From a virus (taxonomy: Duplodnaviria; Heunggongvirae; Uroviricota; Caudoviricetes), in the IMG/VR virus record IMGVR_UViG_2623620497_000008, positions 1-43,789 of that record: a DNA stretch of 43,789 nucleotides. One strand, 5' to 3'. Made by a program: the position numbers and the translations under genes. The notes beneath the pieces are model-generated. The model did no database searches. It saw nothing but the letters and a program-made list of their open reading frames with translations, and was not told where the DNA came from. Positions 22,309-28,506 of this stretch are shown piece after piece. How positions within the stretch are numbered: position 1 is the stretch's first letter; every line of letters starts with the position of its first letter.

Positions 22309-23709
22309 TTAGCTGTTTCCCAGCGCTTCCCAGATATCCATTGCCGTATCGGTTGGAGCAAACGCCATGATGAACGCGTCGGCCACGTTCGGCGATGGTA
22401 CGTCACGCTTGGCGAGGTCTTTCTTGCTTTCCACCATCACGCGACCGTTTTTGTCAAAATCACGGTGCGGGGTGGTAAGTTCCAGCTTGAGCTTTTCCAG
22501 CAGCGGACAAGATGAGTCGATGCTTATCAGCTCATCTACCGGGTACTGCTCGCCGTTCTTTACCGCGTTGAAGGTGTTACGGAAGCGATCCGCCACCAGC
22601 CACCAGGCTTGCGCTTTGAGGTTGGCGAAAAAATCCTTGTTCGGGATGCCAATATATTCGTAGTCCGGCTCATTCACACCAGCGCCAGCATTGAATCGCT
22701 GATAATTGATGCGGGATGCATTCATGTTTTCGCGCTTACGATCCTCATTAATTTCTGAGAATTTCGCGCCAGCAGATGCCCCAACGCCGATTGAGTCGTA
22801 GACAATATCAGCATCACGCTCCAGTGCCGCCTGATACGTACGCTGGCAGCTCTTCAGCAATTCGTCTTCTTTCGCCTTCCACTCATCCGCCCAATACACG
22901 ACGGAGCCGTGACGATAGACGTTAGCGCACTTATCGGCGCCGCTATCAGCAACGTCGAAGCCAATACGCTTGCGCCCGCTCGGCTCGAAATTAAGGACTT
23001 TATGGGCATCAACGGCCGCCTCAATCCATGACAGCTTGATAATGGCCGCATCATCATCCGACTCTGGCACGCCTTCGTAGACATGCTTAAACCCATCCGG
23101 ATCCCGGCGTTTAGCGGCGTCGATAACCTTCAGCATGGTGTCGGACAAAAAGGGGTTTTCATCGTAGTTGATTTTGCGTATCAGCGTATCTTCTGGCGGA
23201 TCGACCACAAAGTTACGCCACACGAAATCAGTCACCAGCCCGGGGTTAAAGATAAACCAGCACTCTGATCCCTCTTTACGGATGGTTGGCTCCAGTATCT
23301 TCCACTGGTATTCCGTCAGCGCGTGGGCCTCTTCAAGCCACAGAACGCTGATACCCTCCAGAGACTTAATCTCTTCAATGTTGCGCCAGAGCCCATAAAA
23401 GACGAATTCAGACCCGGTCACCCGGTTAATGATTTTGTTGTTCAGAATGCGGAAACGATGCCGCAGGCCAAAGCGGTCAATCTGAATTTTGAGCAGGGTA
23501 TATACCGACTCTTCAATTTTGTTCTGGATCTGACGTGCACAGCAAAAGCGCAGGCTGTATTTATTCGACAGAAATATGGCTATGCCAGCGGCATCCCACG
23601 ATTTTGACGATGACCGGCCACCATAAAGCACTTTGTTACGCGCCTGCGTCGTCCAGAAGCTACGCAGGACCGGATTCAGCGTCGGTTTGGATGTCAGAGT
23701 AGAAGTCAT
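22309..23709 (-). CDS. terminase large subunit
   Basis: ATPase-like N-terminal region (VLYGGRSSSKSWDAA) and nuclease-like C-terminus; track ORF begins at TTG 23817, ATG candidates at 23748/23736/23709. Confidence 0.8.
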   Translation of the reverse strand: MTSTLTSKPTLNPVLRSFWTTQARNKVLYGGRSSSKSWDAAGIAIFLSNKYSLRFCCARQIQNKIEESVYTLLKIQIDRFGLRHRFRILNNKIINRVTGSEFVFYGLWRNIEEIKSLEGISVLWLEEAHALTEYQWKILEPTIRKEGSECWFIFNPGLVTDFVWRNFVVDPPEDTLIRKINYDENPFLSDTMLKVIDAAKRRDPDGFKHVYEGVPESDDDAAIIKLSWIEAAVDAHKVLNFEPSGRKRIGFDVADSGADKCANVYRHGSVVYWADEWKAKEDELLKSCQRTYQAALERDADIVYDSIGVGASAGAKFSEINEDRKRENMNASRINYQRFNAGAGVNEPDYEYIGIPNKDFFANLKAQAWWLVADRFRNTFNAVKNGEQYPVDELISIDSSCPLLEKLKLELTTPHRDFDKNGRVMVESKKDLAKRDVPSPNVADAFIMAFAPTDTAMDIWEALGNS

Positions 23710-24436
23710 TGAGGTCACGCTCTCCGTTGCCATCATCAATACCTGCATCACGGCGAAGACGATCGGCCTCCAGCGACACCTTATCAGTAGCAGCCTTGCG
23801 ATAGTCTGTATCAGCAAATATTTTGCCTACCGTCGCAAGCGTGCCGACGATAGACTCAATACGAACGGTATTGCGCATCATCGCCTTCTCGGCGGCGCTG
23901 ATATTTTCCATCAACACCTTTCTTTCCTGGTCCCCTTCAGCATCATCCAGCTTGGTCAACCACCGGCCAATATTCTCTGCGGCGACAAGGTTGTTAGCCC
24001 GAAGGCGAAATAATTCGTCTTCGAGTGTCAACGCTTTCGCGTCTTCAATGACCTCATCTTTAAGCAGAAGACGCCGGGCGTAACCACCATGCTTTAACGC
24101 CTGCTGGTTGCCGGGTTGGAATGGGTTGGTCGGCGGATCGGTACGCACCCCGCGTATCGGTTTCGTATCTGGTGGAGGCTCGGCTTTTGGTTGCGTACTT
24201 TTTTGCGTGCGGCCAGCGCTGGCAGGCTTTTCGCTGGTACGCGCCTTACTCTTTTGCGTACCACTTTGCGTACCATTTTTGCGTACCTGCGTACCGCTAT
24301 TGCGTACCCAGTCAAATTTTTTAGCCCTCTTCCTGATAGCCCCTTCAGTAACGCCGTATTTATCGCCTATATCACGGAGACTAAGGACTCCGGCCCGGTA
24401 TGCCGATTCGATGGCCTCCCAGTCCGGTTTTGCCAT
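23660..24436 (-). CDS. terminase small subunit (N-terminal HTH, GTQ-repeat linker)
   Basis: HTH-like N-terminus; immediately upstream of and overlapping the large subunit gene. Confidence 0.6.
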   Translation of the reverse strand: MAKPDWEAIESAYRAGVLSLRDIGDKYGVTEGAIRKRAKKFDWVRNSGTQVRKNGTQSGTQKSKARTSEKPASAGRTQKSTQPKAEPPPDTKPIRGVRTDPPTNPFQPGNQQALKHGGYARRLLLKDEVIEDAKALTLEDELFRLRANNLVAAENIGRWLTKLDDAEGDQERKVLMENISAAEKAMMRNTVRIESIVGTLATVGKIFADTDYRKAATDKVSLEADRLRRDAGIDDGNGERDLNDFYSDIQTDAESGPA

Positions 24437-24494: not shown

Positions 24495-24923
24495 TCAAGC
24501 TAAAACGCCGACCGTCTGTTTTTCTACTTTGTCTCTGGCCAGAGAAATGCAGAACCGCACAAACAGGGATGAAAGCGCATAACACACTGCGGTAAATACC
24601 CAGCCGCCGTAGGCAAGTAGAGCGATGGTCGCCATCATGCAGAACCAGCCCCACCATCGAGCAATGACGTTCTTACGCCGGACAATCTTCCTCAGCGACT
24701 CCAGCACAGACTGACGTGATTTCTCATCAGTTATATGCTCTGCACCATGTGCGAGAAATATTGTGATAATGCCAACCACCCCACCAAGAAATACCACCAC
24801 CCAAAACGCAGCAGCAGCCACGTTAAGGACGTTGCTTTGCCCTGTGACCGACCCAAAAGCCAGCGCCGCAAGCAACGCGTAATAGAGGCCCTTATCAATC
24901 ATGTCGATTAAAAACTTTTTCAT
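24495..24923 (-). CDS. integral membrane protein, about four predicted TM segments
   Basis: 142 aa; AAGGA SD 9 nt upstream of ATG. Confidence 0.5.
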   Translation of the reverse strand: MKKFLIDMIDKGLYYALLAALAFGSVTGQSNVLNVAAAAFWVVVFLGGVVGIITIFLAHGAEHITDEKSRQSVLESLRKIVRRKNVIARWWGWFCMMATIALLAYGGWVFTAVCYALSSLFVRFCISLARDKVEKQTVGVLA

Positions 24924-25035
24924 GCTGTTTTCCTTTTAGATGTGAGCCTGTCGCACGGCAGAGCCGCCGAAAGTTAACGGTTTGCCCAAGCTCACCGCTG
25001 AAATACTTTCTTTGATGTGCGCGAGCGATGCGCAT

Positions 25036-25059
25036 AAAAAAGCCCCGCGATTGCAGGGC
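25036..25059 (-). terminator. rho-independent terminator (GCCCUGC-AAUC-GCGGGGC + U6) after the AT-rich cassette
   Basis: Inverted repeat 25042-25059, A6 at 25036-25041 on plus strand. Confidence 0.5.
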
Positions 25060-25092
25060 TGTATCTCATAAACTGAAAGTAAATGGATGAAA

Positions 25093-25359
25093 CTATTTTT
25101 TTATGTTTTCGAAAGTGGCTTCTACCATTTTCTTTCCAAACTCACCCATATCTTTATACATAACCTTTAAAAAGTTAATTGTGTTTGACGCTGCACCTTC
25201 CAATTTCCATTTACATGCAATAAAATTACAATTAATTAAATTAAAAGGCTGCAATCCTTTATATACAATTTCGCAATTTTCAAAAACGCACTTTTCGAAA
25301 TGGTTGCCATCCAGTTCGACGACAGTATTATTAAAAGTGCTTGAAATAAATTTATTCAT
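25093..25359 (-). CDS. small Cys-containing protein (88 aa, four Cys), AT-rich cassette gene 2
   Basis: ATG overlaps the stop of gene 1 (ATGA); low GC. Confidence 0.55.
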   Translation of the reverse strand: MNKFISSTFNNTVVELDGNHFEKCVFENCEIVYKGLQPFNLINCNFIACKWKLEGAASNTINFLKVMYKDMGEFGKKMVEATFENIKK

Positions 25360-25664
25360 GTTAATTCAAAGCCTTGCGTTGCATCAGTATCCTTGACATC
25401 ATTACCGATCATTTTACCATTGGCCTGCATGAATCCTTTATCGTTGCTATAATCGCTTGGAGCATAAAGTGCAACATGATTAAAATTCAGCGTCAAAAAA
25501 AACACTATTACAAGCCCTGCCGGGAAAAACATTAAAAACCAAAGATATGTACTTTGTTGGGAATCATTAAGAAAAGGTAATACGAGGTTTGCAGAGACCT
25601 CTACTATCCCCGCAAAAATACCGATAATCGTTAACGGGTTTTTTATGTGGTTTATCGCGGACAA
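25356..25664 (-). CDS. small membrane protein (102 aa, two predicted TM), AT-rich cassette gene 1, TTG start
   Basis: TTG 25662-25664 preceded by AGGAGGG at 7-nt spacing. Confidence 0.55.
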   Translation of the reverse strand: MSAINHIKNPLTIIGIFAGIVEVSANLVLPFLNDSQQSTYLWFLMFFPAGLVIVFFLTLNFNHVALYAPSDYSNDKGFMQANGKMIGNDVKDTDATQGFELT

Positions 25665-25694
25665 CGCAGAACCCTCCTGAAATCATTTAGGGGG

Positions 25695-25703
25695 ATTATA
25701 TCA
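25695..25703 (-). promoter_or_regulatory. extended -10 promoter element TGaTATAAT driving the AT-rich cassette
   Basis: Minus-strand TGATATAAT about 30 nt upstream of the cassette start; no good -35. Confidence 0.35.
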
Positions 25704-25761
25704 GCAACTAAATCAAAGAGCATCATCATAGGCAATAATTGAATGCCAGTTGTCATGCTTA

Positions 25762-25995
25762 TCATTTTGGAATGGTGACGGCTGTTGGTTTCTGGCAGTT
25801 CGCCTGCCAAGCTTTGTTATGCGCCAGGATGTCGCGCTTGGTCTGCTTATCCAGCACGTCGATGTCGTGGTCGGTCAGGTAGATGATCCGCACCCAGCTG
25901 CAGGCCGTATCAACGACTACCGGGGCGGGTAAACTTTTCGCGCAGCTCCCGATCAACATCGTCATCAGGCATATGGCTAACGGTTTGCTGTACAT
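25762..25995 (-). CDS. o-spanin (Rz1-like outer-membrane lipoprotein), overlapping the i-spanin gene
   Basis: ATG 25993-25995 with GGAGG 8 nt upstream; lipobox-like LIGSC; out-of-frame overlap with i-spanin 3' end. Confidence 0.55.
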   Translation of the reverse strand: MYSKPLAICLMTMLIGSCAKSLPAPVVVDTACSWVRIIYLTDHDIDVLDKQTKRDILAHNKAWQANCQKPTAVTIPK

Positions 25996-26185
25996 CGCTT
26001 GCCTCCTTCGTGACTTCTGCCTTACGTTCTGCTGCGGCGACGGTGGCGGCGGCATTCTCTTCGGTACGCTGCTGATCGGCTTTGGCTTGCGCCTTACTGG
26101 TCCCGCGAGCATGACCAATGCCGAACGCGCCAGCTATAGCGCCCAGGATGACGACCACCAGACCAGAAATAATTTCGAAGCTCAC
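25910..26185 (-). CDS. i-spanin (Rz-like), GTG start
   Basis: N-terminal TM helix then charged helical periplasmic region; GTG overlaps upstream stop. Confidence 0.5.
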   Translation of the reverse strand: MSFEIISGLVVVILGAIAGAFGIGHARGTSKAQAKADQQRTEENAAATVAAAERKAEVTKEASDVQQTVSHMPDDDVDRELREKFTRPGSR

Positions 26186-26529
26186 TGCTGCGGCTCCTTC
26201 AGTTCTTCGGCCTTAGCTTTCAATGCTGGCTGGCGTACGTATTGCGAAAGCACCGCCAGCACCACCAGCGCAGGGCTAATCAACGCAACAATGTTTGGAG
26301 GCAGAATGTTTTTGATATCCGGCGGCAGCATCGCCCAGGCGTGCAGCGCAGCATCCGGGAACGACTGCGCCCACATGCCAACCAGCGCACCGATAGCCCC
26401 CAGCTTTACAGACCACGTTTTCAGCAGCAGGCTGGCATGGGCAACGAACTCCAGCCGGGTATATTTGCGCAGCAGTAACAGAACGAGCACAGCCACCACC
26501 ACGAGCAAAGCGAAGATGATCATCTTCAT
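26182..26529 (-). CDS. membrane protein in lysis cassette (about three TM); possible second holin/antiholin-like or lysis regulator
   Basis: ATG overlaps the endolysin stop (ATGA). Confidence 0.45.
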   Translation of the reverse strand: MKMIIFALLVVVAVLVLLLLRKYTRLEFVAHASLLLKTWSVKLGAIGALVGMWAQSFPDAALHAWAMLPPDIKNILPPNIVALISPALVVLAVLSQYVRQPALKAKAEELKEPQQ

Positions 26530-27065
26530 AGCACGCGCTCCTTAACCCAGCCGTAGAGGAACTCCTCGTTGGCTTCGCGGCCCTCCGCCAGTTCGAGGTA
26601 TCTGGCGCCCTGGCTGCAGTTCAGCGCACGTAACAGAACCTGTTCCCCCTCTTTCCCGCGGGCTGAAAGATATCCCTTAAGCGCAGTGATGGTTCGGGGG
26701 CCAATGGCGCCATCCGGGATCAGATCGGGATACAACTTCCCACGCATGTTAAGGGCAGTGAGCCAGCGCTGGAAAAACTTAATTGCAACCGATGGCCCCA
26801 TGTTCACGCCAGTGTCGCAAAGCTCATCTGCCAGTAACGTAGATAAACTTGCCACCTGATCGAATCGGGGGCCGGTCCAGTAATCGCTGAGCAGAATTTG
26901 CTTTGCTGTTTCCCTGGGCAGGTTTCTCATATCACCGGTGTAACCATGTGCTCGAGCTGTGGTCTGCGTGATGCCCCAGCGGGTCGGCCCGCCTTTATCC
27001 GACGGATGATCGACATAACCGCCCTCTTTGCCGAGGATCCCCTCGATAGTCTGGTCTGCTTTCAT
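26526..27065 (-). CDS. endolysin, GH108-type muramidase with C-terminal peptidoglycan-binding domain
   Basis: N-terminal EGGYVDHPSDKGGPTRWGIT motif characteristic of GH108 lysozymes; ATG overlaps the holin stop. Confidence 0.7.
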   Translation of the reverse strand: MKADQTIEGILGKEGGYVDHPSDKGGPTRWGITQTTARAHGYTGDMRNLPRETAKQILLSDYWTGPRFDQVASLSTLLADELCDTGVNMGPSVAIKFFQRWLTALNMRGKLYPDLIPDGAIGPRTITALKGYLSARGKEGEQVLLRALNCSQGARYLELAEGREANEEFLYGWVKERVL

Positions 27066-27373
27066 TGTGCTTTCACTCCGGTGATTCGTTCCCAGAAATA
27101 CGTGAGCGCTACGGAACCCATAGCACCACTGATACCGGCAGTGGCCAGTATCATGTAAATACTCAGGCCACCTTCAATGCTGATGAGCCCACCAATAACC
27201 CCGGTAAAAGCCGAAACCACAATCTGCGCAAAAGCATTTATCCAGCTCCATTTTGCTTTGCCCTGCTTTACGTCCATCAGGAATCGGACAAGGCCGCCCC
27301 AACCAGCAATGATCAGCAGAACCAGCCAGGACATCCCGGCAATGCTCTCTTTGTCTTGCATACGCTTAGCCAT
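27062..27373 (-). CDS. holin with dual-start motif (MAKRM)
   Basis: 103 aa, TM helices, GGAGG SD; first gene of the lysis cassette. Confidence 0.65.
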   Translation of the reverse strand: MAKRMQDKESIAGMSWLVLLIIAGWGGLVRFLMDVKQGKAKWSWINAFAQIVVSAFTGVIGGLISIEGGLSIYMILATAGISGAMGSVALTYFWERITGVKAQ

Positions 27374-27816: not shown

Positions 27817-28506
27817 TCAGTTCGGTTTTGCAAGACTTACATCTAAATTTGACGCCTTTTGTTGTGAACGTGATCGCGTTACCGCCATGAGAGCGTCGCT
27901 ATCAAGCTTCACAAAACTGCTGCGCAGCGCCAGCCAATGAGGGAGGTAGGTTTCTGTCCATGTGGACTTTGCTACACCAACCAGCTCCGCCAGCGACTGG
28001 TATTCATACGTCTCCCGTCCTGCCAGCTCGGCTTTGACGTCCTGTGCGGCCAGCCAGATAAGTTGACAGAGGCGATCGACTGTTTTCTTTGCAATGCGCA
28101 CACCGGCCAGCTTGTCGCTGAATTGCTCCCATGCCCAGCGGGTTATCGTCTCCTGGTGCTCCCAGCGGATATTGTCGCTGTAGTTCCACAGCAACCAGGA
28201 TTTCTGGTGGTCTTCCAGCGACAGGAGGGCGCGACGCCAGCTGGCTGTCGAGTATTCAACGGGCAGAACGAGAGCGATTGAGGAACCCTTAGCGCGGGAC
28301 TGGCTGCCGCTCATCGGCGGTCCATCCGGGTTAACCATTTTTTGCTTCACCTCGCTATATACCTTCTTCCGGCCACGGCTGCGCGCCGTAGCGGTAAATT
28401 GCGCGTTCTCTGCAAGAGCTACCAGTTGCCCTTTCGTCGCACCACTCAGATCGGCGGTGGCCACTATCAGCTGCTGGCGAACAAATTCCAAGTATTGAGC
28501 TGTCAT
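27817..28506 (-). CDS. Q: late gene antiterminator Q-like protein
   Basis: 229 aa; position between the nin-like region and the lysis cassette. Confidence 0.6.
   Translation of the reverse strand: MTAQYLEFVRQQLIVATADLSGATKGQLVALAENAQFTATARSRGRKKVYSEVKQKMVNPDGPPMSGSQSRAKGSSIALVLPVEYSTASWRRALLSLEDHQKSWLLWNYSDNIRWEHQETITRWAWEQFSDKLAGVRIAKKTVDRLCQLIWLAAQDVKAELAGRETYEYQSLAELVGVAKSTWTETYLPHWLALRSSFVKLDSDALMAVTRSRSQQKASNLDVSLAKPN

Follow-up and report, generated by a model that had tools for sequence, protein, structure and literature searches.

What is the role of a small AT-rich pair of genes that sits directly after the spanin genes of an Escherichia coli lambdoid prophage? The question is raised by a two-gene cassette (25703..25035) in the IMG/VR record IMGVR_UViG_2623620497_000008, whose entire stretch of 43,789 nucleotides (nt; the 43.8-kb window) was analyzed. 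All genes in this part of the window are on the minus strand, as are the other features given below unless stated otherwise, and the neighborhood genes are listed in reading order. The first gene, orfA (25664..25356), starts with TTG and encodes a predicted inner-membrane protein of 102 amino acids (aa). The second, orfB (25359..25093), encodes a predicted cytoplasmic protein of 88 aa and overlaps orfA by 4 nt (ATGA), which agrees with the translational coupling proposed in a preliminary description of this DNA. That description had also seen a moron architecture and a layout recurring in abortive-infection systems. Our analysis suggests that the cassette is a good candidate for a new prophage-borne membrane-acting defense module. 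We give a probability of roughly 0.4 to the reading that it is expressed in the lysogen and acts at the membrane in defense against, or exclusion of, superinfecting phages.

To judge from their occurrence, orfA and orfB are one evolutionary unit. Loci were retrieved via orfB, 25 from IMG/VR and one from Cytophagaceae, and a gene of the orfA family abuts or overlaps orfB on the upstream side in 25 of these 26 (24 of the 25 IMG/VR loci and the Cytophagaceae locus). Natural single-chain fusions were also found, P0219 (219 aa) and P0331 (197 aa), in which the orfA hairpin is followed by a linker and the orfB domain. In the AlphaFold2 (AF2) model of the natural fusion, residues 11-32 and 35-62 form a helical hairpin, which a disordered linker connects to the orfB domain. 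Other members of the orfB family carry the domain on one of two unrelated N-terminal transmembrane (TM) anchors or joined to a soluble domain. In the loci examined elsewhere, the pair is not joined by a third conserved gene.

The product of orfB had been labeled a Cys-rich protein, which is misleading. Its AF2 model, based on 86 homologues, has a predicted local distance difference test score (pLDDT) of 95.9 and shows nine strands of 3-4 residues within residues 2-53, about two coils of a pentapeptide-type beta-helix, followed by helices at 56-70 and 72-87 that form a helical hairpin cap. The hydrophobic residues keep a strict 5-residue period over about eight repeats, and OrfB thus has the tandem 5-residue repeats, predicted to fold as a right-handed quadrilateral beta-helix, that define pentapeptide-repeat proteins. 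The four cysteines reported earlier are present, but they are spaced as Cx4C (C24/C29 and C44/C49) and not as CxxxC, and they lie at the inward i-2 position of the period, a habit likewise seen in AlbG and Qnr. Among 86 sequences, C24 is conserved in 86, C29 in 85, C44 in 83 and C49 in 44 (Val in 37); more divergent orfB partners have Val at C24. Because the Cx4C pairs are in phase with the repeats and Val replaces C49 and C24, these residues are probably packed in the core, and a metal site or zinc ribbon was rejected. An exhaustive profile search gave 3,710 representatives of the family at 50% clustering, mostly of 88-110 aa. Compared with Mangrovibacter, orfB is under purifying selection (ratio of nonsynonymous to synonymous substitution, dN/dS, ~0.15 with dS ~1). 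Residues 58-88 of OrfB (~25188..25096) resemble positions 67-102 of the N-terminal domain of EcoKI HsdM (2ar0), with an E-value of 0.34 that is not significant, although the local resemblance is striking.

The preliminary description could not match the pair to a known family. Sequence and profile searches relate the OrfB beta-helix to a segment of HalA and give a single family match for OrfA. The Pfam model Pentapeptide_4 matches OrfB with 18.8 bits (E 1.7e-3), below the gathering cut-off of 38 (PF00805/PF13599 family), and the orfB family profile matches MfpA and AlbG at E ~0.005. The NCBIfam model of HalA matches 56 of 86 members of the orfB family at E<=0.01 (best 7.4e-11, positions ~81-147), while Qnr models match only one or two of the 86. 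OrfB itself scores 21.5 bits against the HalA model, at positions 81-147. On these profile matches, the orfB domain and the beta-helix segment of HalA are homologous at the family level. The Hailong anti-phage defense system has HalA as its tetrameric DNA-gated, membrane-depolarizing ion channel (PMC13434031), and HalA has been described as having pentapeptide repeats and an IRK-type channel domain (PMC13586616). The abortive-infection idea gains from this family homology, but not from PADLOC, where no match was found.

Residues ~10-31 and ~40-61 of OrfA are hydrophobic segments, and a strong Shine-Dalgarno (SD) sequence, AGGAGG (25678..25673), lies 8 nt before its TTG start; both features had been noted before and stand. 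Relatives of the cassette also carry AGGAGG or GAGGGG as SD. The invariant residues are N9-P10-L11, E22 within TM1, F47-P48 and L66-Y-A-P-S-D71. Behind the first ~80 residues, which constitute a strongly conserved module, the tail is variable except for a conserved G-F-x-L at its end; the short, split-type OrfA proteins keep a G-F-x-L-like motif at the extreme C-terminus. The sole family match is PHROG 26238 (E 6e-26), where positions 6-85 of the 303 in the profile are covered. Pfam, NCBIfam and PADLOC gave no family, and sequence searches of the PDB gave noise only. Purifying selection is also evident in orfA (dN/dS ~0.10 against Mangrovibacter, dS ~1).

One scan of GTDB species representatives confirmed 229 loci of the TM-hairpin family with 45-60% identity, distributed over Proteobacteria, Bacteroidota, Planctomycetota, Verrucomicrobiota, Acidobacteriota, Bacillota, Chloroflexota and Patescibacteria. 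Most members have 200-370 aa and unrelated C-terminal domains, a few of which are winged helix-turn-helix (wHTH), TPR, or NERD/restriction-enzyme-like. The orfA hairpin is a very widespread, uncurated N-terminal module with swappable cytoplasmic domains. AAA_21 ATPases were found next to the long forms in 5 of 37 loci, and their neighbors also include a type IIG restriction-modification enzyme, a RelA/SpoT-like gene, integrases and IS21. The long-form consensus (loci L009-L085, GTDB genomes) has an FD...ExK-like motif that suggests PD-(D/E)xK nucleases. Since PHROG 26238 has 303 positions, orfA and orfB were also considered as one longer gene that had been broken. This idea was rejected because the overlapping split form is kept in many genera under purifying selection and because the C-terminal parts of the long forms are unrelated to OrfB.

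The status of the cassette as a horizontally mobile moron, placed right after the spanin genes, is well supported by genome comparisons, and the earlier claim of a moron architecture holds: deviant composition, a conserved promoter-like element, a terminator, recurrence beside unrelated lysis and packaging modules and alternative cargo were all found. In the Hendrix/Juhala sense of the term, there is a downstream terminator, and both the deviant composition and presence/absence among related phages are seen. The marked AT-richness already noted was confirmed, with GC contents of 0.295-0.37 across 25000-25600 against 0.50-0.60 in both flanks. For the cassette the values are 0.34 against 0.51-0.55 in the flanks; ten other cassette loci have a like contrast, and the GC content of the cassette is below that of its flanks in every host examined. 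No second copy of orfA or orfB is present in the 43.8-kb window, and the RefSeq annotation includes the coding sequences of both genes.

A block of ~830 bp (25758..24929) is shared, with 68-75% nt identity in BLASTN, by prophages of Citrobacter, Salmonella and Mangrovibacter and by phage EKP1, whose holins and terminases differ, as do their endolysins (GH19, lysozyme, GH108). Among 14 non-redundant IMG/VR loci, an endolysin lies upstream in at least 9 (three types) and a terminase downstream in at least 8 (three to four types). The identical cassette is present in 35 of 5,426 complete E. coli genomes. In one of them, E. coli EC5 (L248, NZ_CP060969.1 2000836-2001533), an IS1A at the 5' end of orfA cuts the gene off from its putative promoter, and the LysA-like gene is truncated as well. 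Public contigs of E. coli, Klebsiella and Enterobacter carry the two exact proteins, on at least 1,000 and 925 contigs, respectively. Related pairs are present in Salmonella, Citrobacter, Pantoea, Vibrio and Aeromonas, and the annotation is hypothetical throughout. Vibrio and Marinobacter carry the pair outside the lysis slot, at ordinary sites of the chromosome, and in Klebsiella it was found at a prophage edge adjoining large open reading frames (ORFs) on the opposite strand. No INPHARED phage was matched by megablast, and in the distant search mode the sole phage with the cassette was EKP1. This phage, recorded as an Elizabethkingia phage (OM284015.1, 35845-36690), carries the cassette with 74.5% nt identity in an enterobacterial lambdoid-style lysis region, and its assignment to an Elizabethkingia (Bacteroidota) host looks doubtful.

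The slot after Rz/Rz1 (L245-L247 and IMG/VR L104-L124) is a variable cargo site. E. coli prophages with 85-94% identical Rz/Rz1 have a DUF4747 pair, DUF2560 or small ORFs there, and Acb2/Tad1-hairpin (anti-CBASS/anti-Thoeris-like) proteins are also among the cargo. L245 carries a GIY-YIG nuclease gene between the endolysin gene and Rz.

Putative expression signals were found at both ends of the cassette. The cassettes of Citrobacter, Salmonella, Mangrovibacter and EKP1 are homologous to this one from 25758 on, 4 nt past the Rz1 stop codon. The mobile block has an upstream non-coding part (25665..25758) containing a small hairpin (GGCA..TGCC), a promoter-like element and the ribosome-binding site. 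The element, an extended -10 of the form TGaTATAAT (TGATATAAT, 25703..25695), is located 31 nt 5' of the orfA start codon. As a pattern, TGNTATAAT has two matches in the 43.8-kb window, and this count alone is not significant because ~1.0 match is expected by chance. The weight of the element would lie instead in its conservation in register: comparison of the upstream regions showed TGnTATA(A/C)T at the same place in the Mangrovibacter, Citrobacter and Salmonella cassettes (four genera with this one), preceding an SD of the GAGG type and a start codon that is TTG or GTG, with diverged bases around it. A consensus promoter scan found no recognizable -35 element and for this reason omits TGATATAAT. 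The extended -10 element of the preliminary description is thus present and in register in relatives, but it has no -35 and its frequency in the window is at chance level. The second match of TGNTATAAT is antisense, inside orfA (TGCTATAAT, 25445..25453, plus strand). It was considered as an antisense promoter and is probably a coding by-product, since its reverse complement spells the codons of the invariant S-D-Y-S motif. Expression of the cassette in the lysogen, independent of Q, is plausible. The cassette is co-directional with the late operon, and therefore Q-modified transcription should read through it too.

At the other end there is an intrinsic terminator (25060..25035), consisting of AGCCCTGC-aatc-GCGGGGCT at 25060..25041 and a T6 run, with an 8-bp stem (6 GC pairs) and a 4-nt loop. 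The cassette transcript is predicted to end here. The hairpin with U6 had been reported as part of the cassette, and it is present, but it is a backbone element and not specific to the cassette, because lambdoid phages without the cassette have it in common. The terminator and ~105 nt after it show ~90% identity in many of these (mEp213, mEp043, mEp237, mEp390, HK639, phi80 and others). The stem varies among relatives, and other hairpins take its place in Mixta and Mangrovibacter. An Rfam match to GcvB that spans the terminator and the 3' end of orfB, which is AT-rich, was judged spurious (31 bits against a cut-off of 42 bits).

In the mechanism that we propose, OrfA would be inserted in the inner membrane as a two-helix hairpin and OrfB would be made in coupled amounts through the ATGA overlap. 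Both termini of OrfA are probably cytoplasmic (N-in/C-in), because the loop between TM1 and TM2 is short and acidic and the C-terminal domains of the long forms are of cytoplasmic types. OrfB may dock on the cytoplasmic tail of OrfA, with G-F-x-L as the docking element, and the complex may oligomerize into a membrane-perturbing or channel-like assembly whose core would be the invariant Glu of TM1 and the LYAPSD juxtamembrane motif. The OrfB head would sense or relay a cue from the infecting phage that opens the assembly, and the superinfecting phage would be stopped by depolarization (abortive infection) or by a block of genome entry. Its own extended -10 would drive expression of the cassette in the lysogen, and Q read-through would bring a second phase of expression late in lytic growth. 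A bolder version, which we consider doubtful, is that the NPL...E...FP...LYAPSD hairpin defines a superfamily of membrane effectors with swappable heads. The pair would then be a minimal, HalB-independent relative of Hailong, in which OrfB gates the pore directly on a phage protein, and would constitute a prophage-borne abortive-infection/exclusion system of clinical Enterobacteriaceae.

Several results weigh against a defense function. The match to HalA spans only ~67 of 338 model positions, and 21.5 bits is far from the 250-bit cut-off. A full-length HalA match was not found, and OrfA has no detectable similarity to HalA. No HalB-like nucleotidyltransferase adjoins the cassette, whose neighbors are Rz/Rz1 and a LysA-like gene, and PADLOC-DB v2 gave no match for OrfA or OrfB at E<=1. 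Judged by these searches, the cassette is not a Hailong system, nor a catalogued PADLOC system. One orfB homologue stands alone, without a membrane partner. The AF2 model of the natural fusion, computed as a monomer, shows no confident docking of its two parts (predicted template modeling score, pTM, 0.49). The neighborhoods of the long forms of orfA are mixed and contain many housekeeping genes. In addition, the slot cannot tell defense from counter-defense, because Acb2/Tad1-like anti-defense genes are found there too. With neither a PADLOC match nor homology to lysis accessory proteins, the function of the cassette can only be inferred.

Among the other explanations, an addiction module of the toxin-antitoxin (TA) type survives best, and we consider it unlikely. 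In this scheme OrfB would be a protein antidote that is co-translated with a small membrane toxin, OrfA, and the two would serve to stabilize the prophage or an island instead of defending against phages. The small, overlapping and translationally coupled genes are in accordance with this, as are the mobility and AT-richness of the module, its many unrelated contexts, the highly conserved TM hairpin with a buried Glu and the IS1 that disrupts the 5' end of orfA in one strain. However, a labile antitoxin with a stable toxin fits poorly with single-chain fusions of OrfA and OrfB, and equally poorly with an OrfA hairpin joined to many other cytoplasmic domains; no TA family is matched by OrfA or OrfB. 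This explanation is only partly distinct from the defense reading, since TA and abortive-infection functions overlap.

The gene neighborhood leads to another explanation, that the pair is an accessory of lysis timing, which modulates the holin, a pinholin or the spanin as an antiholin or a LysA-type regulator. The gene for the Q antiterminator (28506..27817) is followed just 3' by tRNA-Asn and then by genes with clear Pfam/PHROGs matches: a LydA-type holin (27373..27062), a GH108 endolysin (27065..26526), a DUF7940/holin-like gene (26529..26182), and Rz (26185..25910) with an embedded Rz1 that ends at 25762. Directly 3' of the cassette is a LysA-like gene of 142 aa with four TM segments (24923..24495), followed by terS (24436..23660) and terL. 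The LysA-like protein has 30% identity (E 4e-19) to proteins carrying Pfam PF28015 'LysA' and also matches PHROG 162 (lysis) and NCBIfam DNZ54_00345. The LysA of P2 is a four-TM lysis-timing protein. The position between lysis and terminase genes given in the preliminary description is thus correct on the upstream side, at Rz/Rz1, but the next gene is a LysA-like lysis gene with terS and terL beyond it, and therefore the cassette is inside an extended lysis cluster. The same prophage also encodes a homologue of DNA polymerase III theta (HolE-like) 5' of Q (L001 1297-1560).

The place of the cassette between Rz/Rz1 and the LysA-like gene, its recurrence after spanins in many prophages, its late-operon direction and the two TM segments of OrfA, as in class II holins, would suit a lysis accessory. 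Homology of OrfA or OrfB to lysis accessory proteins was looked for and none was found; in Pfam and PHROGs neither protein matches a family of holins, antiholins or spanins. The cassette, moreover, has its own promoter-like element and terminator, and the OrfA hairpin is widespread outside phages with wHTH or nuclease-like domains. The explanation is further weakened because the pair occurs at non-phage chromosomal sites (Vibrio, Marinobacter) and at Klebsiella prophage edges, and because prophages with the same lysis genes lack it. We consider it improbable.

A function in counter-defense or host takeover, with the membrane-tethered beta-helix neutralizing a protein of the host or of a rival phage to the advantage of the phage itself, has a similarly low probability. 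A pentapeptide-repeat protein of a phage acts against the Sucellos system (bioRxiv 10.1101/2024.07.02.601686), Acb2/Tad1-like genes are found among neighbors in the same slot, and the cassette would be transcribed late by Q read-through. However, the promoter-like element with the terminator and the non-phage occurrences point to expression in the host state, and the closest sequence relative of OrfB is the defense effector HalA. To our knowledge, membrane tethering is not known for anti-defense sponges, which also counts against this function. Least likely, and in our view very improbable, is a Qnr/MfpA-like DNA mimic that guards gyrase or topoisomerase as a tolerance factor acquired by lysogenic conversion: OrfB matches Qnr, MfpA and AlbG weakly, but it has about two coils where Qnr or MfpA dimers have eight to nine, Qnr models match only one or two of 86 family members against 56 for HalA, and the obligatory membrane partner would be left unexplained.

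Between the terminator and the LysA-like gene, outside the cassette proper, there is a conserved structured leader (25034..24929), which ends just before the ATG at 24923. It is composed of the blocks GCGCATCGCACGCGC / AGAGAGTCTTTCAG / GTGAGCCTGGG...CAGGCTCAC / TCTAAAAGGAAA-ATG, and in its modeled consensus fold CUUUCAG would be paired with the SD region of the next gene. At least 119 exact-pattern matches were found in IMG/VR, 5' of at least 25 different ORFs. One position of the inner stem covaries (GC 11, CG 10, UG 10, UA 6), and no Rfam family matches the leader. It may be an undescribed translational-control leader.

If the cassette does act in defense or exclusion, it would affect the host range available to phage therapy in clinical lineages. 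It would also provide a two-gene minimal system of ~570 bp for the coupling of a Hailong-type beta-helix to a membrane effector without the DNA-signal layer, and would flag the larger orfA hairpin family, the 229 species-level loci of the one scan, as a modular effector family to mine. If it does not, the cassette still illustrates cleanly how a moron can travel among unrelated phage backbones at the junction of spanin and terminase genes.

Both protein families, those of orfA and orfB, are uncurated, and the cassette can be compared with several known systems. HalA (PDB 9nyi; NCBIfam NF051894) is one chain of 338 aa, while in the cassette the unit is split over two genes. HalA also has a DNA-binding cytoplasmic 'crown' and is kept shut by oligo-dA from its partner HalB; the cassette has no crown. 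From the pentapeptide-repeat proteins Qnr, MfpA, AlbG/McbG and Rfr32, OrfB differs in having only about eight repeats and a family-specific helical hairpin, and in being accompanied by or fused to a membrane anchor, with the exception of the lone homologue. The Gifsy prophage defense protein GiPD474 was considered as a relative and is an unrelated ATPase.

The two-helix module of OrfA is comparable to SLATT, PycTM and the 2TM effectors of CBASS, where a short membrane module is likewise combined with interchangeable cytoplasmic domains across phyla. OrfA matched neither SLATT nor any other family of Pfam or PADLOC; the match of a single long-form relative to PycTM (E 6e-4) was treated as noise. 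No nucleotide-signaling partner, as found in 2-TM conflict systems, is present at the cassette. Among phage genes, bor, lom and rexAB of lambda and gp15 of HK97 are likewise promoter-gene-terminator units of deviant composition between late genes and, like the cassette, differ in presence and absence among related phages. For two of them, rexAB and HK97 gp15, exclusion of other phages is the work of an inner-membrane protein. Searches by sequence and by profile found the cassette similar to none of bor, lom, rexAB and gp15, and the cassette differs from these morons in that its terminator is a shared backbone element. In architecture the cassette thus resembles Hailong and other 2-TM effector designs; in genomic behavior it is like the morons of lambda and HK97.

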